Virus record (IMG/VR): IMGVR_UViG_2534681700_000010
Location: 1-12,125 of that record
DNA from: a virus
Lineage: Duplodnaviria > Heunggongvirae > Uroviricota > Caudoviricetes
Strand: one strand, 5' to 3'
DNA length: 12,125 bases
Below, in pieces: positions 1 through 12,125 of the stretch. Below the pieces are notes generated by a model. The model had not been told where the DNA came from. It searched no databases and saw only the letters and a list, made by a program, of their open reading frames with translations. Position numbers and translations under genes: made by a program. How positions within the stretch are numbered: position 1 is the first letter of the stretch; every line of letters starts with the position of its first letter.

Positions 1-996
1 TTACCCTTCAAACTCTTGCTCCACAGAATCATTATCTGCGCATACAAAACCAAGCGCCTCCCCAAATCTCTCACGCGGAAAACCAGATTTGGGCACCCCC
101 ATAGAACTGTATGAACATCCCGGCATATTGGGTTTTTTGTCAAAGAGATCTGCAACCTGGCGGATCCATGTAGAATTTGGCCCGATCATTTTGACCAAAT
201 ACCAAATAATACATATCGCACTATAAAGACGCTCACTCGCAGGGGCATCTATTCTCAGTGAATTGAAGAAGGTTGTATTTGGTATTGGGATTCCAGCATG
301 TTTTCTATTCCAGATTCTGGAATGATGCGCACAACGATTACGCAAAAGATTCAGACATTGCAACCATTTGGTTAATGTTTGTTTATTGTCGATATTTAAT
401 CTTTTAATTATTTTGGCTTGTATACCACCATTCAGCATCGCGTAATATTTTGACATTTGGCCAAAATCCCAGGCTTCAACAACTACCCAAAAAGGGATCT
501 CCTTCCCCTGATTCAAATGCCAAAGAATGCACTCATCCCGGCTATCTTCCAGCTTTTTATCAAGCTTTTTCTGCCATTTTGTAAACGTGCTGGGTTTTCC
601 ATCATTAAGATAACGCTGGTTTATGTAGGATTCCTTTCTGTAAGCAAGCGGATCATATCGCCCTAATTCATGAGCGATAACGGAACGAATATGAATCTCA
701 ATACGTTCCAGGGCATCCATCATTAACATTCGAAGTTTTTTATCAAAAAGATAAAGATCGTATGCCTGCTCGAATGTAGTACCAGGGAGAAATTCATCGC
801 TCCTGAATGAAAGGCCTTCATCATTACAGCGAATGACGCGCGACGTATACCAAAACCCGGACAAGCGATAATAACCAACCTGAGACAGTTTCCTCATGGC
901 TCGCTTACAATCTCTGATTACCATGCCACGACTCAATAAAATCTCAAGCTGCTCTGAATATTCCTTATGTGGCTTTGCGGCAATCATACTCGTCAC
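1..996 (-). CDS. Abi_2-family (AbiD/AbiF-like) abortive-infection protein
   Basis: Complete ORF, stop TAA at 1-3. N-terminal EQLEILLSRGMVI...YYRLSGFWY and C-terminal LRNRCAHHSRIWNR match the conserved motifs of Abi_2 proteins as I recall them. The track start at 996 is GTG; the first ATG is at 987; neither has a strong SD. Hand counts of sampled 60-nt lines give about 25-40% GC, against about 50% in int. Confidence 0.75.
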   Translation of the reverse strand: MTSMIAAKPHKEYSEQLEILLSRGMVIRDCKRAMRKLSQVGYYRLSGFWYTSRVIRCNDEGLSFRSDEFLPGTTFEQAYDLYLFDKKLRMLMMDALERIEIHIRSVIAHELGRYDPLAYRKESYINQRYLNDGKPSTFTKWQKKLDKKLEDSRDECILWHLNQGKEIPFWVVVEAWDFGQMSKYYAMLNGGIQAKIIKRLNIDNKQTLTKWLQCLNLLRNRCAHHSRIWNRKHAGIPIPNTTFFNSLRIDAPASERLYSAICIIWYLVKMIGPNSTWIRQVADLFDKKPNMPGCSYSSMGVPKSGFPRERFGEALGFVCADNDSVEQEFEG

Positions 997-1224
997 ATGT
1001 TTTTGACAATAAAAGGCCCGACCGTGAGACTCACAAACAAAAAAGTTACGGAGAAACAGGGGATCGGGCTCGGTTGCCGCTAAATCTATTCAATTAAAAG
1101 AAGATGTCAATAGGGAAAACGAAAAAAAACAATGCTGATACTGTCATAATTTGAACAAAACCACTATATGTAGTTTTAGTTCATGAGGTTATTCGCTACC
1201 AGATGCGTCAATAGTTTTTGACTA

Positions 1225-1416
1225 TTAATAATCCCTCTTTTCCCATGTTTTTCCATCGGGGTCTTTGCGCTTGTCACTACCTGGTAACTGCTGGTGGCGT
1301 TCCTGTTGCAGCACAACGGAAACAGGCGCTGAACACCTGTTAATTTTGCTTGCTGGTTGTTTGATTCCGGCAATGCTGCGGATCATCTCCAGCAAATCGG
1401 CTTCGGTGATGGTCAT
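1225..1416 (-). CDS. Hypothetical small protein (63 aa)
   Basis: ATG at 1416 preceded by AAGGTG with a 6-nt spacer. No family recognised. Lies between the TTGACAC repeat array and the Abi gene. Confidence 0.5.
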   Translation of the reverse strand: MTITEADLLEMIRSIAGIKQPASKINRCSAPVSVVLQQERHQQLPGSDKRKDPDGKTWEKRDY

Positions 1417-1446
1417 GGTTTACACCTTAGGAAATCTTAGGGGGCT

Positions 1447-1712
1447 GGTTGACACTTTCCGGCTTAAGACCTTAACAAATCTTAACATCGCAGGTTGACA
1501 CACTTGACACTTTTTCGCGAAAAACCTTATCAAACCTTAGCATTTCTAAGCATGGCAACTTGACACTTTTCGCGATTTTTTCGGCTTTTTGACGTGGTAA
1601 ATCTGGCGAAAGGCCAGTAATGGCGGGGCTTACAGCGAGGTTGACACTTTTTTCGCGTTCAGAGTGTAAAGTGTCAACCTGGCAAGCTGCTCAACTTGAC
1701 ACTTTTTGATGT
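1447..1712. repeat. Array of TTGACAC-T(4-6)-CGCG-like repeats: five direct, one inverted, plus a degenerate half-copy
   Basis: Seen directly: TTGACAC at 1449, 1495 (half copy), 1504, 1560, 1641 and 1696 on the plus strand, and inverted GTGTCAA at 1671-1677. Four copies are followed by TTTT(T)(T)CGCG. Irregular spacing (46, 9, 56, 81, 55 bp). Interspersed AACCTTA / CTTAAC short repeats at 1468-1540. Sits immediately 3' of the HTH-protein gene (stop at 1712-1714). Confidence 0.6.
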
Positions 1713-2239
1713 CATTGATGGTCTGATTTTTCCCATTCAGCCAGGGCGTTTAGCCCGGCTTCACTCCATGATTCCAGTTCATCGGGATAATCACCTGCAA
1801 CATAGCAGAGTTCGCAACGCAGCATACGAATTGCCAGCCTGGCATTACCCCGCAAATTGTATTTTTCAAAGTAATGCTGCCCTTCATCATCCTCAAGGCA
1901 GATAGCACCATCATCAAGAAAGTGCACTTCCCAGCCTAATTCCCCGGCTGCATCCTGCACACGCTGCTGTATGTCATCGTCCGTTGCCGGCGCAGGAATT
2001 TTTCCGTCTCTGGCCTTAACTGCTTTCCAGAACTCGCCCCACGTCATTTCCAGCGTTCTTTCTGGCCACATTTCAGAAACTGTGTCTTTTCCCTGTGCTG
2101 CTGGGCTGTTCCGCTGTTCTGTCGCTTCCACATCGATTTTTTTACCGGACATGACCACTTCGCCTTTCTCGATCCAGTCGTAAACTGTCTGGCGGCTTAC
2201 GCCTTTGTGTTTGGCATATTCTGCCTTGCTCATCAGCAT
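1712..2239 (-). CDS. HTH DNA-binding protein (175 aa); possible packaging-redirection (Rpp / small-terminase-like) or regulatory protein
   Basis: N-terminus MSKAEYAKHKGVSRQTVYDWIEKGEV is a classic helix-turn-helix signature. GGTGAG SD-like sequence upstream of ATG 2239. Separated by 6 nt from the stop of the upstream ORF (operon). Functional assignment is inference. Confidence 0.7.
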   Translation of the reverse strand: MLMSKAEYAKHKGVSRQTVYDWIEKGEVVMSGKKIDVEATEQRNSPAAQGKDTVSEMWPERTLEMTWGEFWKAVKARDGKIPAPATDDDIQQRVQDAAGELGWEVHFLDDGAICLEDDEGQHYFEKYNLRGNARLAIRMLRCELCYVAGDYPDELESWSEAGLNALAEWEKSDHQ

Positions 2240-2245
2240 TATGAC

Positions 2246-2917
2246 TCACCCTTCTTTTTCCAGTTGAGCCAGCCGCCCGGATATTTCTTCCAGTTTTTCC
2301 AGGGCTGGCTTGCAGGCCGCATCAATAACGTCCCGGACCATTCCGGCAAGCTGTTCTTCTGCTGTCGGCGTTGTTACTTCCACGCCCGATGGTTTCCCGC
2401 CCTTATCCCAAACACCAAGCGGCACGAGCGCAACGTGATCGATAAGAAATGGCGTACCCTCAATAAAAAAATTGTCCTCGCCCATTACATCAGGAACTTC
2501 AGCCCCACCGGACGCACCACAAAACACAACCGACGGGCTGGTGGATACCTCCCCCCGTGCTTTCTGGATGTAATCGATGATTTCCTGCCCGTAAATCCGG
2601 CATACGCCCCACACCTCGTCACCGCGAATATACGGCAACATGACGGTGCCAATAATGCGCGACCGTTCGCCCACGTCTTCAAGGGTTTTGCTTTCGGGAT
2701 GGTCGATAATGACGGGTACTCCGGCGCAACGTTCCAGGAACTGCGGATTGAGATAAGTTTGCGGTGAACGCCAGACAAATTCTTTTTCTTCGGCGCGGTA
2801 GGCCATTCCGGTTCCTGTGATACGCAGGTTAACCAGCCACATGTTGGAAAACTGATAAGGCGACGGTAGCTGTCCGTCCCGAATCTGCTTCGCCGCCTCA
2901 ATTTCTGTTAAAAGCAT
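2246..2917 (-). CDS. Hypothetical protein (223 aa)
   Basis: Long ORF in the same orientation as its neighbours and tightly packed against the downstream HTH gene. ATG at 2917 has only a weak SD. No family recognised. Confidence 0.65.
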   Translation of the reverse strand: MLLTEIEAAKQIRDGQLPSPYQFSNMWLVNLRITGTGMAYRAEEKEFVWRSPQTYLNPQFLERCAGVPVIIDHPESKTLEDVGERSRIIGTVMLPYIRGDEVWGVCRIYGQEIIDYIQKARGEVSTSPSVVFCGASGGAEVPDVMGEDNFFIEGTPFLIDHVALVPLGVWDKGGKPSGVEVTTPTAEEQLAGMVRDVIDAACKPALEKLEEISGRLAQLEKEG

Positions 2918-2981
2918 AATGTTATCCGGTTATAAGCAATAAGCCCCGCCAAATCCGGCAGGGCTGAACTCAGCACGTTTT

Positions 2982-3566
2982 TCATGCCCCCGCGAGGCTT
3001 GCAACGTTAATTTTGACCAGGCGACGGGGAGGGATTTTGAAGGCGTTCAGCCAGACGTTCGGATCTCCCTGATATTCAGTAATACGACGACCGGCTTCAT
3101 CCATTCTTACGGTTTTACCCAAATGGCCCGGCGTGTTTTCCACGGCCCACTGAGCACTTTCCTGAGCAGCCTTGTAAATCTGATCTTCCAGCACCGCCAG
3201 CGTTGCAGAATCTGAAACGGAACGAATATCCACATCACTGAATTTTTTAGCCAGCTTCTGTGCGCCAATTAATGCACGTTTGCGGTAATCCATCGACTTT
3301 TCACCAGCAAACGGGGCCGGAGCGCGACGCCCCATATTGCTGTATGCGGAATCCGCTTTAGCCTGGGCTTCTGCCAGTGAGGATTCATCTTCGACTGACG
3401 CGACGATGTTTTGATTCGCGTTATCCTCGTCTGCTTTTGTGAAATCCTGTGCGGGGATCGCATTCAGAATTTCGATAATCTCCTGCGGAGTGCTGCCCTG
3501 CGACTCTGACAGAGCGTTAACCACCTCCATCAGTTTTAATCGCAAATCTTCTTTGCTTGCTGGCAT
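2982..3566 (-). CDS. Hypothetical acidic protein (194 aa from ATG 3566)
   Basis: ATG at 3566 preceded by AGGTGG with a 5-nt spacer; the track start at 3575 is GTG. Acidic, Ala/Glu-rich protein with no recognised domain. Confidence 0.7.
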   Translation of the reverse strand: MPASKEDLRLKLMEVVNALSESQGSTPQEIIEILNAIPAQDFTKADEDNANQNIVASVEDESSLAEAQAKADSAYSNMGRRAPAPFAGEKSMDYRKRALIGAQKLAKKFSDVDIRSVSDSATLAVLEDQIYKAAQESAQWAVENTPGHLGKTVRMDEAGRRITEYQGDPNVWLNAFKIPPRRLVKINVASLAGA

Positions 3567-3605
3567 TGTTACCACCTCTCTTTTTTCACCAAAAAATCAC
3601 GACCA

Positions 3606-3779
3606 TCAGGCCGGACGTTCTACGGGATAAAGCGCCCGCTGCATTAAACGCCGGGCGACCTCATGAATGCTCGGAGCAATCCCCAGCGGAGAATTGCGGC
3701 GTTCCTCGTCCTGGATGCGCTGTAATGCTTCAATCTGATCACGAGCGAGTAAAACGGGTTTCACGCTGGCTTTTCTCAT
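3606..3779 (-). CDS. Small protein (57 aa from ATG 3779), possible DNA-binding
   Basis: AGGAGA sits 7 nt upstream of ATG 3779; the track start at 3803 is TTG. First gene of the leftward operon after the terminator cluster. The DNA-binding fold is a guess from the KPVLLARDQIEALQRI pattern. Confidence 0.5.
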   Translation of the reverse strand: MRKASVKPVLLARDQIEALQRIQDEERRNSPLGIAPSIHEVARRLMQRALYPVERPA

Positions 3780-3903
3780 AGTCATATCTCCTGAACAAAA
3801 CAATGATTATGATTGCACAAACTGAAATGACGATCTACATCATTGCAATTTATGAAACAATAACGCATGATGATCGCGTTCTTCCCATTGACTTCAATCA
3901 CCT

Positions 3904-3944
3904 GCAAAAATAAAACCCGCAACACTTCTGGCTGCGGGTTTTTT
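3904..3944. terminator. Bidirectional intrinsic-terminator-like hairpin
   Basis: AACCCGCA (3914-3921) pairs with TGCGGGTT (3933-3940) around an 11-nt loop. Flanked by TTTTTT on the plus strand (3939-3944) and by an A-rich run 3905-3915, which reads TTTTATTTTT on the minus strand. Confidence 0.55.
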
Positions 3945-3952
3945 ACTGGCAC

Positions 3953-3976
3953 AAAAAAGCCGGGAAAAATCCCGGC
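3953..3976 (-). terminator. Intrinsic terminator downstream of the PerC-like gene
   Basis: GCCGGGA (3959-3965) pairs with TCCCGGC (3970-3976) around a 4-nt loop, followed on the minus strand by a T6 run (plus-strand A6 at 3953-3958). Starts 6 nt after the stop at 3982-3984. Confidence 0.6.
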
Positions 3977-3981
3977 CTCCG

Positions 3982-4269
3982 TCACTGACTGCAATTTTTC
4001 GATCCAGGGTATTTCCTGAATGCCTTACCATTGGGCTGATGTAATCCCATCCCGGCATGTGCCCGGCTGATGGTTTCGCGCATCTCCCCGAAATTATCCT
4101 GCCTTGCTGGTGGGCGTGCTGCCTTGCGGATACATTCCGCGCGACGTTTTGCCGCCTGTTCCCGTGCCTTGTCATCATTCGCCAGCATGATGACCTCAGC
4201 CCACCGCGCCGCCGCTCTCCGGTACAGACCACGCGCTTCCAGTGCTTCCGCTTTGCTGTCGTGAATCAT
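3982..4269 (-). CDS. PerC/Pch-like small transcriptional regulator (95 aa), tentative family call
   Basis: ATG at 4269 overlaps the upstream stop (ATGA). The AEALEARGLYRRAAARWAEV motif resembles the E-x-x-G-L-W-R-R-A-A-x-R-W core I recall for PerC-family proteins. The family call is from memory only. Confidence 0.5.
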   Translation of the reverse strand: MIHDSKAEALEARGLYRRAAARWAEVIMLANDDKAREQAAKRRAECIRKAARPPARQDNFGEMRETISRAHAGMGLHQPNGKAFRKYPGSKNCSQ

Positions 4270-4808
4270 GCGCCTGTTTTCTCCTTTGCTGCCCGGCGCT
4301 GACGTTTGCGCTTCTCATTCAGCGCCACCAGCCGCGTTTCTGCGTCCTGTTGTTCCTGTGGTGTCACCTCGCCGCACGGCTGGCCTTTCAGGTCGTAACG
4401 TGCACCACCAGCCATTAAGGCGCGGTAATAGCGCGGAGACTGCGCATAAGATGCCAGCGTCGCACGTAATGCCCCTGGCCCGAATGCCAGCCCCCTGACG
4501 GCGAGATCCTGCATCAGGTCGTCGAATATCCCCACCTTAAGCGGCTTCGGTGCTTCCCGGCTGAATAATTCAGGCCACAACTCAGTGAGGCGGTTAACGC
4601 GCCTGCGGTTTTTGCGCTGGCGCTTGGTCATATGCCGCCACGGTGTCGCCCCTGTGGGCTTCTGCTGCGCTTTCTGGTTACCGGGCATCACTTTATGCGC
4701 CGACGTGGTTTTATCCTGCTCCTGTGCCGCCTGCGTCGTTTTCTGCGGCGTGCCATAAATGCCTTTCGGTTTTCTGTTAATGGTCAGCTTAGTCATGCTT
4801 TGCCCCAT
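4266..4808 (-). CDS. ProQ/FinO-domain protein (RNA-chaperone-like), 180 aa
   Basis: PLKVGIFDDL...LRATLASYAQSPRYYRALMAGGARYDLKGQPCGEV aligns by eye to the FinO-like domain of E. coli ProQ (PLKIGIFQDL...[35 protein letters not shown]). Basic, low-complexity N-terminus. Start ATG at 4808 or 4796; both have weak SDs. Confidence 0.7.
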   Translation of the reverse strand: MGQSMTKLTINRKPKGIYGTPQKTTQAAQEQDKTTSAHKVMPGNQKAQQKPTGATPWRHMTKRQRKNRRRVNRLTELWPELFSREAPKPLKVGIFDDLMQDLAVRGLAFGPGALRATLASYAQSPRYYRALMAGGARYDLKGQPCGEVTPQEQQDAETRLVALNEKRKRQRRAAKEKTGA

Positions 4809-4814
4809 CGTTAC

Positions 4815-5152
4815 AACTGTCTACCAACTGTCTACCGATATAATTGATTGATTTATTTAATGTTATTAACTCATAACAAAAAAACAATCTGCAAACTGTC
4901 TACTAACTGTCTACCGCATTAATACATTGATAATTAATGATTTTTTCAAAGTGGTAGACAGAGTAGACAGTTAAAAGAGAAATTTTAAAAATGAACCCTT
5001 AACTATCTGTTTTTATATACCCCCCGTGGTTTAGGAATATAGAAACAACTGTCTACTCTCTACCACATTTAAAAATATCTATATAATTCAATGACTTAGC
5101 CGGTAGATAGTTGGTAGAGGGTTAAGTATTACTGTCTACCAACCGTCTACCT
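4815..5152. repeat. Putative replication origin: AACTGTCTACC iterons in both orientations around AT-rich tracts
   Basis: Direct copies at 4815-4825, 4826-4836, 4894-4904, 4905-4915, 5047-5057, 5131-5140 and 5141-5152. Inverted copies (GGTAGACAG / AGTAGACAG) at 4953-4961 and 4962-4970. Degenerate copies at 5001-5010 and 5102-5119. Very AT-rich spacers. Lies immediately 3' of the primase/helicase gene (ends 5179). Confidence 0.7.
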
Positions 5153-5178
5153 TTACGTTTCAGCTTATAAATTTCGTA

Positions 5179-6984
5179 TTATGTTCTGTCGTTAATCCCT
5201 GTTGCTGCTGGCAACCAGCCATCAGCATCATCATCTAACAGAACATTTGTTATCACTCGCCCTTTATCTGGGCCTTTAGTGCATTTAGCCCGCTTATACT
5301 CCTTTCCGTATTCCGCCATAGCACCCGGCATATCAGTGCCAAAGCGTTTCAGTGATACTGGTTTTCCCAGGCCATGCGCTGACATATAGGCTAAATAAGC
5401 ATGATACAGATATCGTCTCGGGCTAAATGGCACTATTCCCGCATTGCCCACCATCATTCCTTCACATTTAACCAACGACATCAGATAGCCGCAAAAGTCC
5501 ACCAGTGAATCACCCTCGCGTTTTATCACCAGAGCCTCTTCTGATTTCTGCTGCTCATATAACAGACGTCTGGCTTCATCCTGGTCAGAAAAACGAGTAA
5601 GCAGGTGGCGAATCACTACCGCCAGTTCGCATTCTATCTTTTCCGCCAGCATGGGATCGCGTTCGTTCTCCGGTACGACCTCAGAGAAATTAAATATCAC
5701 CCTACGACGCGAGATCCCCCCGCTTCGGTCACTGAATGACATGGCGTTATTGTTTACCGCAAGCACTACTGCCGGAATACGTGTGGAGTAGGGGGCTTTA
5801 TGTTTCGGGTCAATTGCCACCTTGTCGCCGCCAGTAATTGCCTTAATTCCTGCACCATCGCCAGCGTAGCGAGTCATATCCGGCATGATAATCAGCGAAA
5901 AGCCAACTACTAACGCGCGTTCCCTTGCGTCTTCCAGCGCCTTCATGCTTGCCGATACTGTGTTGGCCTTACCCGCCAGCATGGTACAAATCTCAGCCAT
6001 CACACTTTTACCGCTTCCGCCTGGGCCTGTTACCTCAAGGAATAACTGCCAGTCGTACCGGTTCGCCAGTACCATGAATAATGCCGCCAGTACGCGATCA
6101 GCTTTACGATCATTATCTGCCACCGAACGACGCAGCCACTTCCAGAAATTCGGCGCATGTGTTGCCAGCGTTTCCCCCTCTGCTGGCGGGCTGAACGGTA
6201 ATTCACTGGCATTTAACAACCAGTCATTTTTGTTATGCTCCCGAAAATTTCCCGTCCGGGTATCAAATACCCCGTTACTGAATCCAATAAGATTCCTGTC
6301 TGCCCCGCCCATAACAGGCAGGCTCAATTTCATTGTGTCTACGGCAAATTTAATGGCGTTTTGCGAATAACTGATTCCAGCATCAATAAAAATCTTCGCC
6401 ATAGACCGCTGGAGTTCCTTATCAGATACAGGCACCCAGACAATTCCGTTGTAATGGTGAACTACATCAGAATCATCATTTATAGCCAGTGCTCTTCCAT
6501 AATATTCAAGTAACACTTCCCCTCTCTGGCTGGCTCCCATCTGATTTAGTGCTGGCCTGGGTAGGTCAATATTTTTTGTGGTTAATTTCATCGCTGAAAC
6601 TTCCCCACTCTCTGCCTGTTCGCGGATCCGTTGCAGGTAATCGCGCCAGTTCTCCGGCTCCCGGTCGGTGATACCTTTGTATAATTTCGCCTCCTGTACG
6701 CCAGCCAGCGCCAGTTTTTCAGCGATAGCGTTGATCTGGATTGGCTCTATCTCCCCCGCAAGATAGACACGTGCAAAGCGGCGTTTCTCGTCAATAATGC
6801 GGATATTCACCAGGTCTGCCAGTTGCTTCGGCCCCAGGTAAACAGGTGGCACGTTATCGCCGTGTTTTCGTCCTTCGCTTTCAATCCAGTGTTGAGCATG
6901 GGCGTAAGCATCCGTCCCGGCAAAAATGATTACCTCGGTGAATTTATCCTTCGGCTGATATTTTAAATTCGGTGCGTTTTTCAC
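5179..6984 (-). CDS. Primase/helicase replication protein (P4-alpha / D5-like, SF3 helicase P-loop), 601 aa
   Basis: Walker A GPGGSGKS present, with a typical phage/plasmid primase C-terminal architecture. GTG start at 6984 overlaps the upstream stop (GTGA) and is preceded by GGGAGGT with a 5-nt spacer. The N-terminal region has no obvious toprim motif by eye. Confidence 0.9.
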   Translation of the reverse strand: MKNAPNLKYQPKDKFTEVIIFAGTDAYAHAQHWIESEGRKHGDNVPPVYLGPKQLADLVNIRIIDEKRRFARVYLAGEIEPIQINAIAEKLALAGVQEAKLYKGITDREPENWRDYLQRIREQAESGEVSAMKLTTKNIDLPRPALNQMGASQRGEVLLEYYGRALAINDDSDVVHHYNGIVWVPVSDKELQRSMAKIFIDAGISYSQNAIKFAVDTMKLSLPVMGGADRNLIGFSNGVFDTRTGNFREHNKNDWLLNASELPFSPPAEGETLATHAPNFWKWLRRSVADNDRKADRVLAALFMVLANRYDWQLFLEVTGPGGSGKSVMAEICTMLAGKANTVSASMKALEDARERALVVGFSLIIMPDMTRYAGDGAGIKAITGGDKVAIDPKHKAPYSTRIPAVVLAVNNNAMSFSDRSGGISRRRVIFNFSEVVPENERDPMLAEKIECELAVVIRHLLTRFSDQDEARRLLYEQQKSEEALVIKREGDSLVDFCGYLMSLVKCEGMMVGNAGIVPFSPRRYLYHAYLAYMSAHGLGKPVSLKRFGTDMPGAMAEYGKEYKRAKCTKGPDKGRVITNVLLDDDADGWLPAATGINDRT

Positions 6985-7271
6985 TTCTTACCTCCCGCAA
7001 CCAACATTGCCCGGATTTTTTTAATATTCGTGGCTGCACGTCTTGCCACTGCCTGTTGTTTGTTTTCAACCAGAATAAAATCACGCTCAAACTGACGGCG
7101 CGGCATTACGCAGTCATATTCGTAAGCCTCACGGCGGTAGGTGATATTGCCTGGCGTAACGTGACGAATAACCACTCGTCCCCCACGTCTGGTGTCGCGG
7201 TAAATATCGCCGTGTCTGATTTCAGGTCGAGCGGGGCCGCTGGCAGTAAAGCCAGAATTTTTCTTTTTCAT
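6981..7271 (-). CDS. Hypothetical basic protein (96 aa)
   Basis: ATG at 7271 with AGGAG upstream. Stop overlaps the primase GTG start. No family recognised. Confidence 0.6.
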   Translation of the reverse strand: MKKKNSGFTASGPARPEIRHGDIYRDTRRGGRVVIRHVTPGNITYRREAYEYDCVMPRRQFERDFILVENKQQAVARRAATNIKKIRAMLVAGGKK

Positions 7272-7277
7272 GGTTTT

Positions 7278-7643
7278 TTACTCCTGCGTCTTGCTCTGAA
7301 TTACCTGATAACCGCAACTGGTCAGCAATTCGATAAATTCCGGCAGTGTTCCGAAACAGCAATTATCACGCAGCCGTTCGCGGGATACTTCAACGCCGTT
7401 TTCGTAGTGACTCACCATGCGTCCGGTAAAATGCAGATCATCATCGTGATGGCACGTTGACGGCTTAATCAGTCGCGCACGTTCTGCCAGCTCCAGCAAT
7501 GCTTCAACACTTCCGGCAATTGCACCATCCGGCAGGTGGTAATTACGCACTATGCGCCCGTTCTCCACATGGACCAGTAGCTGCCCGGTAAATTTCTCGT
7601 CAAACTGAATGCGGTTAAGGTCGGTAAGTGACAGGTTAATCAT
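7278..7643 (-). CDS. Hypothetical protein (121 aa)
   Basis: ATG at 7643 preceded by AGGAGG with a 6-nt spacer. Start overlaps the stop of the upstream small ORF (ATGATTAA). Confidence 0.65.
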   Translation of the reverse strand: MINLSLTDLNRIQFDEKFTGQLLVHVENGRIVRNYHLPDGAIAGSVEALLELAERARLIKPSTCHHDDDLHFTGRMVSHYENGVEVSRERLRDNCCFGTLPEFIELLTSCGYQVIQSKTQE

Positions 7644-7839
7644 GGCGTACCTCCTGACGAATACGGGCGGCGAATACCATCACGCAGCCATCAGGAGATT
7701 GCTGGCGTGCTTCCTGTTCGCTGGTGGCCTCGATGTGAATCACGCGCGGTTGTGCCGTGCTCAGAGCGATAAAACGCCAGATGTATTTATTCAGGTTGTG
7801 CGAGTCCCGCCCTTGCGGGTGTGTGGTATGATTTCTCAT
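7636..7839 (-). CDS. Hypothetical small protein (67 aa), first gene of the primase operon
   Basis: Internal ATG at 7839 of the long track ORF, preceded by GAGGT. Its stop overlaps the next start. Upstream of this point the same reading frame has antisense-like composition. Confidence 0.5.
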   Translation of the reverse strand: MRNHTTHPQGRDSHNLNKYIWRFIALSTAQPRVIHIEATSEQEARQQSPDGCVMVFAARIRQEVRHD

Positions 7840-7905
7840 AGCTACCTCGATAATCTTGCTATCGTTGGTGGTTAGAAGCCCTGCGAGTGGTAACGACACT
7901 TGCGG

Positions 7906-7992
7906 GGCTTTGCCTTTAAGGTGCAAGTCACCTTTGAGGGTTATGCTACTTTTAGGTGACTTGCACTTCAAGCCTTTTTTTATTTTTTTTTC
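7906..7992 (+). promoter_or_regulatory. Large hairpin (perfect 12-bp inverted repeat inside an extended stem) followed by a T7-A-T9 tract
   Basis: GTGCAAGTCACC (7921-7932) and GGTGACTTGCAC (7955-7966) are perfect reverse complements. Outer GGCTT (7906-7910) pairs with AAGCC (7970-7974). T-tract at 7975-7991. Sits between the divergent RHH-like gene and the primase operon start. Confidence 0.5.
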
Positions 7993-8032
7993 TACGTATA
8001 CTGAACGCCACCTAACAGTAAGGAGGCCAGTA

Positions 8033-8212
8033 ATGCCAACGGGTACAACCAACAACAAATCACAACAAAAAACGGCTAGAATCCCTCTAGAAGTTTTAAG
8101 CGAAATGAATTTGGTCAAAGAGGAAAACGAAACAGACGCGCAGTTTATCGTTACAGCCATGCGTGGCGAGATCAAACGCCGCCAGCGCCGCAAGGCCAAA
8201 GAACAGGAGTAA
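8033..8212 (+). CDS. Small ribbon-helix-helix-like DNA-binding protein (59 aa); candidate repressor
   Basis: TAAGGAGG ends 6 nt before ATG 8033. TATACT (-10-like) at 7997-8002. Protein is hydrophilic with common E. coli codons; TARIPLEVLSEMNLV looks like an RHH beta-strand plus helix. Conflicts with the 402-aa minus-strand track ORF, which I judge antisense here. Confidence 0.55.
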   Translation: MPTGTTNNKSQQKTARIPLEVLSEMNLVKEENETDAQFIVTAMRGEIKRRQRRKAKEQE

Positions 8213-8269
8213 CCATCACCAGCGCCGTGGTGTGAGGAACTACGGTGCATCGTTTTACAGGGCAGCGCC

Positions 8270-8449
8270 ATGACCAACAAAGAATCAACCAAAACACCAT
8301 CACCAACTCGTAAGAGACGACGCAAAAATATAGCGCATGAACATGAATCAGAAAGATTCGCACCTTGTTCGTTTGCTCTTGAGAAATTCCTTAAAGAGCA
8401 CAGGAAAAAGCTCTCGTTGCAAACCTTGGAACGAACCAAATCTGACTGA
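8270..8449 (+). CDS. Possible small basic protein (59 aa), not in the ORF track
   Basis: ATG 8270 to TGA 8447-8449, translated by hand as MTNKESTKTPSPTRKRRRKNIAHEHESERFAPCSFALEKFLKEHRKKLSLQTLERTKSD. Weak SD and several rare codons (AGA, CGA, ATA, AGG). Confidence 0.3.
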   Translation: MTNKESTKTPSPTRKRRRKNIAHEHESERFAPCSFALEKFLKEHRKKLSLQTLERTKSD

Positions 8450-8653
8450 TCACATTGCCCACCAGCCGCAAATGTGGCATTGTTGGTGATGCGTTCAAGT
8501 ATGTAGCTTTTCCACTGGCGGCTCTCTGCGGTCGCCTTTGTTTTATCCAGAACGAAATCAGACATCAGATTGATCAGCACCTGGCGACCTGACAAAATCG
8601 CATCAGTCGCGCCACCAGCAAAATTTTTTGCTTTCCGGACAGCGTGGCCAACG

Positions 8654-8672
8654 ATATTTTGCAGCAAAATAT
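8654..8672. promoter_or_regulatory. Perfect 19-bp palindrome ATATTTTGC-A-GCAAAATAT
   Basis: Read directly from the sequence: 9-bp arms around a single central base. Lies in the unresolved region between the antirepressor gene and the small plus-strand ORFs. Confidence 0.35.
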
Positions 8673-8836
8673 TCTGCATTTCTGGCGTGCTGTGGCGACG
8701 GTGATCAGCGCCTTCACATTGAACGAACTTGTCGCTAAAATTCACCCACATAGCAAACATCGCGGTGCTGTAGGTAATTCGTTCACAAAGGCGCTCCGGC
8801 AACGGGGCGCTTTCTCTTTTTGTAACGGTCAGAGCG

Positions 8837-9637
8837 TTACACATGGCTGTTTTCCTCCATGCGACGGGCTAACCAACGCTGCGAAAGACGAATTAATTCA
8901 GCCTTCCGCTGGTGGTAGTCCTGGCCTAACTCAATCAGCGTGATATTGCTCTGCTCAAGGTAAGAAAGGTGCTCAAGCTGCAACGTGCTCATGTGGTCGC
9001 GTGGTTCGCCTGTAATGCCGTTCGCCAGTGCCCACTGTTTTGCAGTCATGCCACCCAGCACGATACGCGCCAGCATGTTCGCTTCCGTGGTGTAGTGGTG
9101 CTGGAGTGTGTTTTTACCCAGTTCAGCCCGGTACGCCTCCAGCGCGGCACACATTGGCTTAAAGTAGCTGGCAACTGTGATACGGGCTTTCAGTTCCCGG
9201 CGTAACGCTGCGGAACGAACAGGCGCAACCTTGTGTAGCTCCTCCTCGCATTTGATAAAGTACTGGCGAACGGCGCGGCCCTGTTCGGTACGTTCGACCA
9301 TCGCCAGTTCTTTCGCCATGTTCACTGTGATGATGTACTCAAGAGCGGTTTGCTGGCGAGATTTTGCGCTCACCGGATCGGGTCGGCTCAAATATTCAAC
9401 AACCTCATAATCCACGCCTTCCGTGAACCCGTATTCTTCAATGCGCCCCTTGATCCACGAACGGAAAACGCGCCCTACACCTAACGCCTTATGTAACGCT
9501 CTGGCGCTAACAATAGTGGTTTCACTCCCGCCAATAACGCCGGAAATAATCGGGATAATTTCGCCGAAATTTTGCAGATTCTGGTTTTCAGGCCGAACGA
9601 AGCCCCGCCCCTGTACGGGCGTTTTTGGAAATTTCAT
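8837..9637 (-). CDS. Phage antirepressor, AntA-domain protein (266 aa)
   Basis: ITVNMAKELAMVERTEQGRAVRQYFIKCEE and the preceding IPIISGVIGGSETTIVSARALHKALGV match AntA/AntB-type N-terminal antirepressor domains. ATG 9637 preceded by AGGAG with a 5-nt spacer. Confidence 0.85.
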   Translation of the reverse strand: MKFPKTPVQGRGFVRPENQNLQNFGEIIPIISGVIGGSETTIVSARALHKALGVGRVFRSWIKGRIEEYGFTEGVDYEVVEYLSRPDPVSAKSRQQTALEYIITVNMAKELAMVERTEQGRAVRQYFIKCEEELHKVAPVRSAALRRELKARITVASYFKPMCAALEAYRAELGKNTLQHHYTTEANMLARIVLGGMTAKQWALANGITGEPRDHMSTLQLEHLSYLEQSNITLIELGQDYHQRKAELIRLSQRWLARRMEENSHV

Positions 9638-9714
9638 AAAAACTCCTGCTATCGAATTAAGTTACTTTTATTTGCTGGTGGATAGCTGGGGGCAATAGCC
9701 CCGTAGCCATTTAA

Positions 9715-9912
9715 TCAGGTAGCTGTTCCGCGTGATTCCGCAATACGCTGATTAATCCACTCGTCAATTTCACTCTCAACGAAAGCAATAGCTCGCGAGC
9801 CAATTTTTACAGGTTTAGGAAAACGCCCTTGGGCAATGAGTTTATAGATCCATGCCCTTCCATACCCTGTACGGCGCATGGTTTCTGGCATACGAATTAA
9901 AGATTGTGACAT
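9715..9912 (-). CDS. alpA: AlpA-family transcriptional regulator / excisionase-like protein (65 aa from ATG 9912)
   Basis: MRRTGYGRAWIYKLIAQGRFPKPVKIGSRAIAFVESEIDEWI matches the AlpA motif pattern. GGGAGA lies 8 nt upstream of ATG 9912. The track's longer version (start 9981) is probably an N-terminal over-extension. Confidence 0.85.
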   Translation of the reverse strand: MSQSLIRMPETMRRTGYGRAWIYKLIAQGRFPKPVKIGSRAIAFVESEIDEWINQRIAESRGTAT

Positions 9913-10026
9913 GATAATCGTCTCCCGTTGTTTATTGATGCCTACGGGAGACATTGAAGCAGGTAAGACATTGGATATCACCGCAATTGCGGTGAATGAT
10001 ACCGCAATTGCGGTATAGGACTACAA

Positions 10027-10782
10027 CTACGATTTAATTGATTTATTGGCTTCAGCAAACTTTGCTTCCAGCGTTCTTGAACTCATCCCCGGCTTACCTT
10101 CAAAATGCCCCAATAAATTACTAATAATAGAGCTTTGATTTTCGAATACAGATTGCTTAATACCAGCAGGTGAACGCCCTAACATTAGAAAAAGCAACCC
10201 TCCAATAATGTTTAAATATGTTGTTTCAGAACGTTGGTCAATGTTTTGCACGGAGTTATCAACCATTCGTCGTAGTGAATCACGTTCCCCTTGTAATTCG
10301 GAAATTTCATTTTTCTGCTGTTGAAAAGTCTTCATAGCATTATCTAAGCGAATATTAAGACGTTTGTTTTCAGCCTGAAGAGTTTGATATGCCTCGACTG
10401 TAATTCCAGCATGTAACTGCTGCTCAACAGCATCAAAAAGGAAAGCTGGTTTTTGGTTGGGATAGTTTTTTGACATCCATGATTTCAGATCGGAATGACG
10501 GACGGTTAAACGGTGCTTAGCAACCTGTTCTCCAGGTTGAACAGTTTTACCATCACGACCATAAGGAATTTCACAATTATGGATTGCATCTAAAATTTTC
10601 TCAGCATTAACACGCAAGCAAGGCCATTGAGGGAACATTCCAACGCTAGGTAAAACTCCATCTCCCACTCGCTCCAATATTAAAACTTCATGAGCAATTA
10701 AATTACACCAACGTAGCGCCGCTTCAATTGGAGTGTAATATGCCTTTTCAAGAGAACTACAGCTTTTTGAATTGTAAGTCAC
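10027..10782 (-). CDS. Hypothetical protein (251 aa) with central coiled-coil and one hydrophobic helix; AT-rich accessory gene
   Basis: GTG start at 10782 preceded by GAGGT; the first in-frame ATG is codon 49. Heptad-like segment LQAENKRLNIRLDNAMKTFQQQKNEISELQGERDSLRRMV followed by YLNIIGGLLFLMLG. Hand counts on two sampled 60-nt lines give about 33% and 42% GC, against about 52% in int. Confidence 0.7.
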   Translation of the reverse strand: MTYNSKSCSSLEKAYYTPIEAALRWCNLIAHEVLILERVGDGVLPSVGMFPQWPCLRVNAEKILDAIHNCEIPYGRDGKTVQPGEQVAKHRLTVRHSDLKSWMSKNYPNQKPAFLFDAVEQQLHAGITVEAYQTLQAENKRLNIRLDNAMKTFQQQKNEISELQGERDSLRRMVDNSVQNIDQRSETTYLNIIGGLLFLMLGRSPAGIKQSVFENQSSIISNLLGHFEGKPGMSSRTLEAKFAEANKSIKS

Positions 10783-10910
10783 TCTGTGCTACCTCGCACC
10801 CTCTGTAAAAGTGGCTGTGCCAGCCCGCAGAGGTGTACGGGTTTTCAGGAGCGACCCTAGACACAGCCTTTTCTTAATCGCTCAAAGTCTACTACTGTAT
10901 ACTCAACCAG

Positions 10911-12125
10911 TCACCCGCATTTTCCGAACTCACCATGCACCACATTTCCGCCATGCTCGAGCGAATCCATATAGTCGGCATACCACTGGAGCATCTCCCG
11001 GCGACCATCCAGATATTGCGCATGGTTGTATGTGCCACGAATTGAGTTTTTATCGACGTGTGCGAGCTGCGTCTCTATCCACGCGGTGTTATAGCCCTGC
11101 TCATGCAAAATGGTGCTCATGGTGTGCCGGAATCCATGACCAGTAACGCGCCCGGCATAGCCGATACGACGAATGAGCACATTCATCGCCATTTCACTCA
11201 TTGGCTTACTGTGGTGAATACGACCGGGGAAAATAAACTGATACTGGCCTGTCATGTTTTTTAACTGCTCCAGTATTTTTATCGCCTGTTCTGGTAATGG
11301 CACACAATGCGGACGGCGCATCTTCATTCGTTCTTTAGGCACTTCCCACAAACGATTATCAAAATCGATCTCCTGCCATTCTGCCTGCCGTAATTCCCCG
11401 GGTCTGACACCTGTCAGAATTAATAGCCGCATTGCCAGTTTGACGATCTGGCTTCCGGTGTACGTATTAAAAACGCGGAAAAATTCCGGCAGTTCGTCGG
11501 CCTTCAAATAGGCGTAATGCTCTTTTTTATGTGGAGCAAATGCGCTCACCAGGTCAGGGGCTGGATTATATTCGGCGCGTCCGGTGATGATTGCGTACCG
11601 GAACACCTCGCCGCATCGCTGGCGAACCTTACGCAATTTTTCAGTCGCACCACGGTCATTAAGACGGGAAAGAACCGCCAGCAATTCCATCGGCTTAATT
11701 TCTGCGATCGGCCTACCGCCAATGTACGGAAAAACATCTTTTTCAAACGTCTCGATCATTTCCTCGGCGTATGACGATGACCACCTGTCGATCCGCTTTT
11801 CGTACCATTCGCGAGCAATACCCTCAAAAGTATTGCCAAATTTGCTCGCCTGTTCTCGCTTTTGGGCTTTTCTGGCCTCACTTGGATTTATACCACCAGC
11901 AAGAAGCCTTTTAGCCTCATCCCTTGCCGCCCTGGCATCAGACAGAGACACATCAGGGTACACACCCAACGACAACATTTTGGGCTTTCCTGCAAACCTG
12001 TAGCGCAGTCGCCACCCTTTCGAACCGTTCGGCTCAATGAGCAACGAAAGCCCGTTACCGTCATTGAGTGTATAAGCCTTTTCTTTCGGCTTCGCGCGCC
12101 TGATGGCAAGGTCTGAAAGCAGCAT
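10911..12125 (-). CDS. int: Tyrosine site-specific integrase, P4/IntA family
   Basis: Close by-eye match to E. coli IntA-type integrases: N-terminal LSDLAIRRAKPKEKAY...DGNGLSLLI arm-binding region and C-terminal HGFRHT...RGTYNHAQY catalytic region. The ATG falls on the last three bases of the window, so the true start may be slightly upstream and outside it. Confidence 0.95.
   Translation of the reverse strand: MLLSDLAIRRAKPKEKAYTLNDGNGLSLLIEPNGSKGWRLRYRFAGKPKMLSLGVYPDVSLSDARAARDEAKRLLAGGINPSEARKAQKREQASKFGNTFEGIAREWYEKRIDRWSSSYAEEMIETFEKDVFPYIGGRPIAEIKPMELLAVLSRLNDRGATEKLRKVRQRCGEVFRYAIITGRAEYNPAPDLVSAFAPHKKEHYAYLKADELPEFFRVFNTYTGSQIVKLAMRLLILTGVRPGELRQAEWQEIDFDNRLWEVPKERMKMRRPHCVPLPEQAIKILEQLKNMTGQYQFIFPGRIHHSKPMSEMAMNVLIRRIGYAGRVTGHGFRHTMSTILHEQGYNTAWIETQLAHVDKNSIRGTYNHAQYLDGRREMLQWYADYMDSLEHGGNVVHGEFGKCG

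Follow-up and report, generated by a model that had tools for sequence, protein, structure and literature searches.

The window analysed here is a 12,125-nt stretch of caudoviricete DNA (IMG/VR record IMGVR_UViG_2534681700_000010, positions 1 to 12,125), whose left end is occupied by abi, a minus-strand gene of the abortive-infection family Abi_2. A structured leader RNA that lies between a sigma70-like promoter and the abi start codon is conserved, covaries and is strictly linked to Abi_2 genes. We consider it probable (roughly 0.7) that window 1-1110, read on the minus strand, is a self-contained two-component abortive-infection or toxin-antitoxin (TA) cassette of the AbiD/AbiF (Abi_2) kind, with the leader as a divergent antitoxin RNA. 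The original prediction, made from the sequence of the window, had described abi as a defence gene with possible partners to its left, outside the window. The very probable partner, which it overlooked, is the structured RNA past the opposite end of the open reading frame (ORF), within the window and beyond the coordinates first reported for the gene; the unit reaches at least 1110 and the cassette ~1287.

The Abi protein and its leader RNA

The abi ORF is uninterrupted on the minus strand from GTG 996 or ATG 987 to a stop codon at 1-3, where the window ends, as had been stated. ATG 987 is the start in all orthologues and in RefSeq and yields 328 amino acids. The 331-aa protein of the original prediction corresponds to the in-frame GTG 996, an alternative reading that exists but does not use the conserved start. 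Membership of the Abi_2 family was confirmed: the protein matched Pfam Abi_2 (PF07751) with 183.1 bits and E = 8.3e-54 (cut-off 25.6) over model positions 2-184 of 184, PADLOC AbiD with 208 bits and E = 4.5e-62, and PHROG 2158, 'abortive infection resistance protein', with E = 8e-59. The gene is also AT-rich, as claimed, with a GC content of 41.5% in the ORF and 40.9% in the cassette (1-1287) compared to 49.1% in the backbone. A HEPN-type motif, R216-N-R-C-A-H221 (RNxxAH; R-phi-x3-H or R[NHD]xxxH), is present, and its residues R216, N217, A220 and H221 are invariant across 25 aligned relatives, the AbiF protein of phiC2 among them. In phiC2 AbiF the equivalents of R216 and H221, R202 and H207, are required for toxicity, and the motif arginine and histidine are needed for AbiF-Cd toxicity and PbAbiF activity (PMC12373285). 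Residues 5-306, a near-full-length stretch, are homologous to PDB entry 8VZ6 (E = 7.7e-31), which is the complex of PbAbiF with its non-coding RNA (ncRNA) and the sole solved relative (PMC12737573). The abi gene is predicted to encode an intact HEPN toxin-type protein of the Abi_2 family. Ahead of its ATG the Shine-Dalgarno sequence is weak, which agrees with a low toxin output. The exact protein was found in 153 blocks of public assemblies. Abi_2 relatives in deposited phages are all distant (<33% identity) and all from Firmicutes, several Streptococcus satellites included.

The promoter of the RNA-abi unit consists of TTGACA (1110-1105), a 16-nt spacer and TAGATT (1088-1083), and the transcript start is predicted at ~1074-1078. 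In 17 orthologous cassettes from unrelated contexts TTGACA is invariant, the spacer is 16/17 nt, TAnAnT is conserved and the distance is fixed. Two sequence boxes, box one at ~1156-1181 (AACTACATATAGTGGTTT) and box two at ~1207-1229 (TTAATAGTCAAAAACTATTGAC), are conserved together with the Abi cassette across unrelated genomic contexts and mark where conservation of the mobile cassette ends on its 5' side. They may be a recombination edge of the cassette or a regulator site. In most orthologous cassettes (e.g. loci L072, L073, L074 and L017) a palindrome, GTGACATGTCAC (or GTGACnnGTCAC), touches the -35 element on its 5' side. The GTGACATGTCAC palindrome was rejected as a general operator, since it is not found in the window's own cassette; possibly GTGACATGTCAC/GTGACnnGTCAC is an operator that has been lost from the window copy.

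The leader RNA begins with a single-stranded 5' tail, CAACCGA. Its hairpin core (1016-1069) is composed of an 8-bp GC-rich outer stem, a 3-nt CCC bulge, a U-A/G-C clamp, a 3x3 internal loop, a CUC/GAG helix and then a variable apical mini-hairpin, and is followed by the U-rich tail CUUUUAUUG. The distance to the abi ATG is 16 nt from the end of the RNA and 28 nt from the hairpin core. The minimum free energy (MFE) of the window leader is -22.8 kcal/mol (z = -3.2). The same MFE architecture was obtained for 14/14 distinct leaders of the Enterobacterales clade, in which the apical stem covaries. Orthologues with just 64-84% protein identity have a near-invariant leader, and it is near-identical from E. 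coli to Proteus, where protein identity is down to 64%; in the central mini-hairpin the sequence is wholly changed between the two and the stem is kept. No tandem repeats of the kind found in a ToxI-like antitoxin array were detected in 997-1290.

A DNA pattern derived from the leader retrieved nine viral contigs, and in 9/9 an Abi_2 orthologue begins 28-39 nt downstream. A further sample comprised 113 loci with Abi relatives of 31-99% identity, collected by alignment-based scans of viral and metagenome contigs. The diversity came from these scans; a single-protein search for related loci on genome contigs returned 2 loci only. The leader design, consisting of CAAC-n-G, a 7-8-bp GC-rich stem, CCYCUG, an inner hairpin, UAYG, a closing arm and a U-rich tail, was present in 85 of the 88 distinct upstream regions. 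In the other three the start codons had been wrongly assigned by the script, and the covariance model described below later recovered the RNA in those loci.

Covariation was analysed in an alignment of 33 compact members (A2). Standard pairs filled 90.9% of the cells compared to 69.7% in shuffled alignments (reached in 0/500 shuffles), and both-sided, compensatory changes were seen in 12/14 pairs. The covariation score was 0.62, and fell to ≤0.15 when the 3' partners were slid by 1-3 columns. RNAalifold found the same hairpin in A2 independently and added C-G, U-A and G-Y pairs, which leave of the internal loop only a CYC bulge of 3 nt and one bulged pyrimidine. Further support is provided by a covariance model, R1, which was built solely from distant compact members and contains zero window-clade sequences. 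R1 matched window 1004-1079 (-) over its full length with 39.2 bits (E = 1.2e-8). When it was run over 100 loci (356 kb, both strands), 98 matches were obtained, one per gene, all on the gene strand and directly upstream, and none elsewhere. The two loci without a match were one that has no upstream DNA and one outlier of 31% identity. In 68 distinct sequences aligned by means of R1, 14/17 pairs showed compensatory changes and 0/500 shuffles reached any of five measures, although this alignment was fitted to the model and is therefore biased towards the structure. Among 5,426 complete E. coli genomes, 77 contain a related leader, and the DNA that holds it is unannotated in every case; the one example checked lies directly upstream of an annotated Abi family protein.

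Additional copies of the RNA were observed in other arrangements. A prophage region of Proteus mirabilis (L019) contains tandem Abi_2 genes with an RNA motif each (1142-1219 and 2898-2973 (+), 20.4 and 47.4 bits, respectively), which indicates that the RNA duplicates along with the gene. In two E. coli strains the promoter and the RNA are kept and the abi ORF is deleted, namely in a satellite beside yejO of ETEC1738 (L143 3048-3123 (-), R1 39.2 bits) and in SCU-171 (L150 3544-3618 (-), R1 31.6 bits). In both, the ORF was lost after 9-10 codons at a shared breakpoint (about window 957-961). Orphan RNA copies of the window subtype thus number two in the complete E. coli genomes, versus one intact system. 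These orphans might be scars of a deletion, or else an antitoxin or decoy that has been retained; among deposited phages no RNA-only copies, as possible decoys, were found.

Table 1. Coordinates of the features located in the 12,125-nt window, with the basis of each assignment.
Feature	Coordinates	Strand	Basis
abi gene	1..987	(-)	Abi_2/AbiD/F-family HEPN protein, 328 aa from conserved ATG at 987
Abi cassette as inserted (slot 1)	1..1287		Backbone homology edge, cq9 comparison, GC
Conserved structured leader RNA, candidate antitoxin	1004..1079	(-)	Covariance model R1, MFE fold, family covariation
Sigma70-type promoter of RNA-abi unit	1083..1110	(-)	Consensus scan, 10/12 matches; conserved in orthologous cassettes
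Two conserved sequence boxes upstream of promoter	1156..1229	(-)	Alignment of orthologue upstream regions, unrelated contexts
D5/P4-family primase-helicase, replication module	5179..6984	(-)	Pfam D5_N, DUF5906, Pox_D5
AlpA-family regulator, core gene of phage-inducible chromosomal islands	9715..9981	(-)	Pfam Phage_AlpA, 2.5e-19
int-alpA RNA, between int and 251-aa gene	10799-10867	(-)	Rfam RF02996, 49.8 bits (gathering score 35.8)
Tyrosine integrase (int)	10911..12125	(-)	Pfam Arm-DNA-bind_3, Phage_int_M, Phage_integrase

Relation to AbiF-type systems and proposed mechanism

The AbiF family represents type III TA systems, in which an upstream ncRNA with the 'abiF motif' (Rfam RF03085) binds and blocks the HEPN dimer (PMC12373285, PMC13064643, PMC12737573). 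PbAbiF from a Prevotellaceae bacterium and AbiF-Cd/RCd22 from C. difficile prophages each combine a HEPN toxin with a cis-encoded RNA antitoxin, and the type has been proposed as a Cas13 ancestor. The window system shares with them the protein family, the RNxxAH motif and the layout of promoter, hairpin RNA, U-rich tail and a gene that begins 16-40 nt further on. It differs in its protein, which is only ~30% identical, and in its RNA. While AbiFr measures 37 nt, RNAs of the window type are about 54-65 nt long and possess an extra inner helix, with a further conserved insert in the window clade; RCd22 contains two hairpins, the window-type RNA one. In contrast to PbAbiF and AbiF-Cd, the window clade is known here from sequence alone.

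More distant systems were compared as well. The lactococcal proteins AbiD, AbiD1 and AbiF share the Pfam Abi_2 and PADLOC AbiD family with the window protein, and a conserved upstream region is reported to be required along with their genes (PMC13064643). They are Gram-positive, plasmid-borne and distant in sequence, whereas the window gene is located on a chromosomal phage satellite of E. coli. ToxIN and AbiQ likewise have an upstream RNA that holds an RNase toxin inactive and a terminator-like element through which this RNA stays in excess, but their toxins have the ToxN/AbiQ fold instead of HEPN, and their antitoxin consists of tandem 36-nt repeats processed by the toxin, compared to a single hairpin in the window. 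A ToxI-like tandem-repeat antitoxin was ruled out, since the upstream region has no tandem repeats and the model matches once per gene.

In the mechanism that we propose, the constitutive-looking sigma70 promoter would transcribe a structured leader of ~70-90 nt, and the GC-rich hairpin with its U-rich tract would end most transcripts. Because a U tract follows the hairpin, most transcripts probably stop there, leaving the small RNA in excess. Read-through would give the mRNA for the HEPN RNase, which would be translated from a weak ribosome-binding site. By analogy with PbAbiF-AbiFr and C. difficile AbiF-RCd22, a dimer of the protein would have a composite Rx4H active site that is blocked by one hairpin per monomer, and the contacts between RNA and protein would be made via the conserved unpaired nucleotides, that is the CYC bulge, UAYG and the 5' CAAC. 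The RNase would be freed when a phage stops host transcription or degrades RNA, or when a phage factor displaces the antitoxin RNA. It would then cut cellular and phage RNA, and the cell would arrest ahead of completion of the phage cycle. By the same logic the cassette would also serve its carrier as an addiction module. For RNA-protein binding, termination at the hairpin, the trigger, the RNase targets and the anti-phage activity of the cassette, we infer these steps from the characterised relatives.

Several observations weigh against this interpretation. A generic terminator scan did not call the leader hairpin, probably because its rule demands a simple stem-loop, and the hairpin with its U tail could act solely as a transcription attenuator. 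The RNA of the window clade carries a long insert that is invariant in sequence and shows no covariation, so that its inner structure there is given by MFE prediction alone. Among the complete E. coli genomes with a related backbone, Abi DNA is present in one (TUM9812), and deletion derivatives of abi exist; given this rarity on the backbone (1/5,426) and these deletions, selection for abi in the satellite context may be weak. Published tests of proteobacterial Abi_2 proteins against phages were not found. Finally, the Rfam abiF model gave no match at E ≤ 10 in window 940-1320 (381 nt) or in five orthologue loci, and the equation of the leader with AbiFr is thus drawn from position, a shared frame and weak reciprocal similarity.

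The Rfam model performed as expected on known loci. It matched phiC2, the positive control, at 37.6 bits. For PbAbiF, the sequence was rebuilt from the PDB alignment, an identical protein (P0241) was located and its contig was analysed. Here, the model matched 18 nt ahead of the PbAbiF ATG at 58.5 bits, and the locus of a relative at 55.7 bits; the structurally characterised antitoxin is thus the Rfam motif. As the leader gave no match with lax filters though the positive controls work, the Rfam abiF motif was rejected as its identity. In the reverse direction, R1 with filters off produced weak matches of 13.8-15.2 bits (E 0.01-0.03) at those PbAbiF-type positions; the 31% outlier also matched weakly. 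In both the window-type RNA and the Rfam abiF RNA the outer stem is CCC/GGG, with CCUCU directly following its 5' arm and AUG directly preceding its 3' arm; both also have a U-rich tail and occupy the same place ahead of the start codon. These similarities suggest that the window RNA is a longer, divergent subtype of AbiFr-type antitoxin RNA and homologous to it.

The window-type RNA is absent from Rfam and from genome annotation. It might represent a separate and widespread class of AbiF-type antitoxin RNA, with the toxin-less copies of ETEC1738 and SCU-171 maintained as decoys, although we regard this combined proposal as doubtful. Such a class would be defined by a two-helix hairpin of ~55-65 nt with a conserved CYC bulge that is also an intrinsic terminator, and would cover essentially the whole proteobacterial-type Abi_2 clade. 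If true, the decoys would disarm Abi_2 toxins, whether incoming or resident, and satellites would have an anti-defence or anti-addiction function based on RNA.

Tools such as PADLOC and genome annotation handle AbiD/Abi2 as a single-gene system; in E. coli and other Proteobacteria the gene is strictly linked to an RNA that is not annotated. One component is missing from counts of 'single-gene' Abi systems, and cloning of the abi ORF alone would probably result in a toxic or misleading construct. The RNA subtype would extend the AbiF-ncRNA (Cas13-ancestor) principle to a large clade beyond the Rfam model, for which a working covariance model is now available. Current understanding is not overturned by these findings on abi and its RNA.

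Alternative explanations

The upstream hairpin might be a cis attenuator or terminator only, which keeps expression of the toxic gene low and neither binds nor neutralises the protein, with Abi being controlled otherwise. A GC-rich stem with a U-rich tract directly after it is indeed found in nearly all members, and premature termination in the leader has been demonstrated as part of the control in C. difficile (PMC12373285). However, a plain terminator needs no conserved unpaired nucleotides, and CAAC-n-G, the C-CYC-UG bulge region and UAYG are (near-)invariant across 43-99% protein identity while the stems vary freely. The RNA subtype moreover follows the protein clade, the extended form being found only in the 64-99% clade, and the RNA at the homologous position of PbAbiF has been structurally shown bound to the protein (PMC12737573). 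We therefore consider a pure attenuator rather unlikely; attenuator and antitoxin roles are not exclusive. It is also somewhat unlikely, in our view, that the cassette is mainly an addiction or stabilisation module for the satellite or any other carrier and confers little or no phage protection. A stable toxin combined with a labile RNA antitoxin is the classic design for post-segregational killing, the adjoining cargo is also a putative TA pair, and prophage maintenance was raised as a possible role by the authors of the C. difficile study (PMC12373285). Yet the lactococcal AbiD, AbiD1 and AbiF were found through their anti-phage phenotype (PMC13064643), the presence of SieB (superinfection exclusion) in the same slot of sister satellites points to anti-phage selection there, and related satellites have lost the abi ORF and still persist. 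Addiction and anti-phage functions of the cassette can coexist.

The genes to the left of abi raise the question of a three-gene system, in which the Panacea antitoxin encoded there would neutralise the Abi_2 toxin by protein-protein interaction. Panacea antitoxins pair with many unrelated toxin folds, RNases included (PMC8832971), and abi and the left genes are adjacent and co-oriented. The arrangement of these genes makes such a system very improbable: the 330-nt gap between abi and panA holds a spacer that is conserved in cargo-less satellites, whereas panA lies within 0-4 nt of the 145-aa gene, whose product is itself toxin-like. In addition, TUM9812 carries this Abi cassette with SieB next to it and lacks PanA, and the orthologous Abi cassettes of prophages have no Panacea neighbour. 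PanA was accordingly rejected as the Abi antitoxin, both on these PanA-less orthologues and on the coupling of panA to its own downstream gene. Rarity on the backbone among complete E. coli genomes and the existence of deletion derivatives would fit an abi gene that is an inactive relic without current function. This, too, is hardly to be expected of an ORF that is full length compared to all orthologues, with invariant residues, promoter and RNA all intact, and of a protein found in identical form in the 153 assembly blocks and on several mosaic backbones. The two-component cassette of HEPN toxin and antitoxin RNA is thus the explanation that we prefer.

Cargo slots and satellite backbone

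Seven contigs are 100% identical to window 1-10987, and the left flank that they show is therefore taken as the true one. Left of the abi stop follow, in this order, a 330-nt gap, a SocA/Panacea antitoxin gene, a 145/147-aa ORF, an arm-site-like repeat (also present near int) and TTCCCTTCGCCCGCTCCA(A). The leftward extension proposed by the original prediction thus reached an att repeat: TTCCCTTCGCCCGCTCCA, 18-19 nt long and corresponding to the 3' end of tRNA-Gly, is located at L002 12373-12391 (window -1385..-1403), ~1.4 kb from the window edge. Past this repeat lie a chromosomal GH15-like gene and then the ETT2 type III secretion island. Core chromosome directly after abi, which would have spoken against the original prediction, was not found; the PanA pair and then the att repeat follow instead. 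In TUM9812 (L001), with an int end 99.5% identical, tRNA-Gly (glyU) is found ~165 nt past the right edge of the window, beside actS. The att repeat on the left and tRNA-Gly at the int end, as seen in TUM9812, delimit an element of ~13.7 kb with the expected att logic. On the distal side of TUM9812 the repeat was not found at ≤2 mismatches; it was found in the window-identical loci.

The Abi cassette extends ~47 nt past the left edge of the window, and its junction with the backbone at ~1288 falls within a small terminal ORF (1225-1416). Of 5,426 complete E. coli genomes, 1,849 have a related backbone, whose homology to the window starts at 1288-1290 in almost every case. In strain cq9 the same tRNA-Gly site is occupied by a sister satellite from which window -47..1287 and the PanA pair are both missing, with the flanks kept. 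This satellite retains the backbone to 1288, the att-proximal end and a spacer of 109 nt, which in the island of the window is found between the abi and panA genes. This pattern indicates two sub-slots filled by separate insertions, the Abi cassette (about -47 to 1287) and the PanA pair (L002 11144-12230). In TUM9812 the Abi cassette is followed by a SieB-family gene at the exact junctions of the PanA pair. The terminal slot contains a SieB superinfection-exclusion gene alone in strain 08-00022 (L145 5286-5831 (-)) and a DUF4747 protein with a 199-aa partner in strain L7_E1373 (L146 4125-5617 (-)), and is empty in Z1323CEC0013. Such differing contents in sister satellites mark the slot as a hotspot of variable cargo. 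Copies of the Abi cassette with 98.6-99.7% DNA identity also occur on mosaic backbones with other replication proteins, and orthologues with the RNA are found in lambdoid and other prophages, with no common protein partner.

The abi gene is swappable accessory cargo at the integrase-distal end of a satellite of the phage-inducible chromosomal island (PICI) type. This agrees with the original prediction, which had placed the gene on a satellite backbone, opposite int, as accessory cargo: the backbone carries int, the AlpA regulator and the primase and has no capsid, tail or lysis genes, and is commonly found without Abi DNA, as in cq9. As in the hotspots of P4-like satellites and PICIs, a variable slot with a fixed junction on a conserved backbone holds differing defence or exclusion genes by strain (PMC9122126, PMC13586616, PMC11364771, PMC10085698); unlike the P4-like hotspot, this one sits on a PICI-like backbone, at the att-proximal end opposite int. 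It is well established that satellites of both the PICI and the P4-like kind carry defence genes (PMC9122126, PMC10085698, PMC11364771), and the novelty that had been considered possible for this context does not hold. AbiD/Abi2 was not named as satellite cargo in the literature texts searched. The abi system is ordinary in kind, a member of a very common abortive-infection family in the variable slot of a common E. coli satellite. For satellite biology, the island is a clean case in which a common PICI-type element of E. coli has, at its integrase-distal end, two slots that can be swapped independently of each other.

The expectation of further hotspot cargo in the left flank was correct as far as the genes themselves are concerned, but they are not partners of abi. 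The Panacea-domain antitoxin gene and the 145-aa ORF occupy L002 11318-12213 (+), 331-1226 nt left of the window. The panA product matched Pfam SocA_Panacea (2.1e-20), and the 145/147-aa ORF begins 3 nt past, or 4 nt ahead of, the panA stop, so that the two abut or overlap. The family of the 145-aa protein is unannotated and widespread, ranging from Enterobacterales to cyanobacteria; Pfam gave no domain for the protein, and its sole NCBIfam match is sub-threshold. Its AlphaFold2 model is a confident one (pLDDT 82.6), and the top Foldseek matches in the PDB are all RelE/HigB/YoeB/YafQ toxins, at weak values (E 0.04-1, target-normalised TM score 0.5-0.6). The protein is a putative RelE/HigB-like toxin and a candidate for a new PanT family. 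With a Panacea partner and a toxin-like 145-aa protein, the pair conforms to the PanA-PanT scheme (PMC8832971), and by its organisation appears to be a module independent of abi rather than its partner.

The remaining backbone genes, all on the minus strand, encode an AntA antirepressor, an Icd-like ORF, a DUF4222 protein, ProQ/FinO and PerC, as well as small packaging-type proteins, namely a DUF2213 protease-like protein and a helix-turn-helix (HTH) protein with an N-terminus resembling the terminase small subunit (TerS). The primase matched TIGR01613 (P4-family primase) with 9.5e-28, below the cut-off of that model. Pfam, NCBIfam and PHROGs family scans detected no capsid, tail or lysis genes in the window. 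This gene content agrees with the description of EcCIMP1, a Gram-negative PICI (PMC11773190), and the element combines int beside a tRNA, att repeats, a size of ~13.7 kb, AlpA and a primase module with the lack of capsid, tail and lysis genes. Judged by these features, the carrier is a ~13.7-kb PICI-type E. coli satellite at tRNA-Gly (glyU) beside ETT2. Assignment to the P4-like class was rejected, as Psu, Sid and Delta had no match among any of the scanned ORFs (Pfam, NCBIfam, PHROGs) and the P4-like component is limited to the primase and the Icd-like ORF.

Further observations were made in the backbone. Between the gene of the TerS-like HTH protein and the last small ORF, window 1417-1705 holds 7-8 copies of (G/A)NTTGACACTTT in both orientations plus a repeated ACCTTAnCAAATCTTA, and looks like an iteron, operator or pac-type array. 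The gap between the primase and ProQ/FinO genes (34% GC) contains two pairs of perfect 11-nt direct repeats (CAACTGTCTAC) at 4814-4836 and 4894-4914, a candidate replication origin of the satellite. A 402-aa stop-free ORF at 7636-8844 (-) is rich in Cys, Ser and Arg, has no family match and shares its stop with the 67-aa Icd-like ORF. It lies antisense to small plus-strand ORFs in a region of strong AT skew (+0.32), and gene callers disagree on identical DNA. With no family, it was dismissed as a real gene and is probably the Icd-like ORF extended too far, even if 335 additional codons without a stop are unusual. The 251-aa gene between int and alpA (10027-10782 (-)) has a GC content of 38.9%, AT-rich like the Abi cassette, and matched no family in Pfam, NCBIfam, PHROGs or PADLOC. 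Its product differs in length among sister satellites (237-265 aa), and the gene may mark a second variable position.

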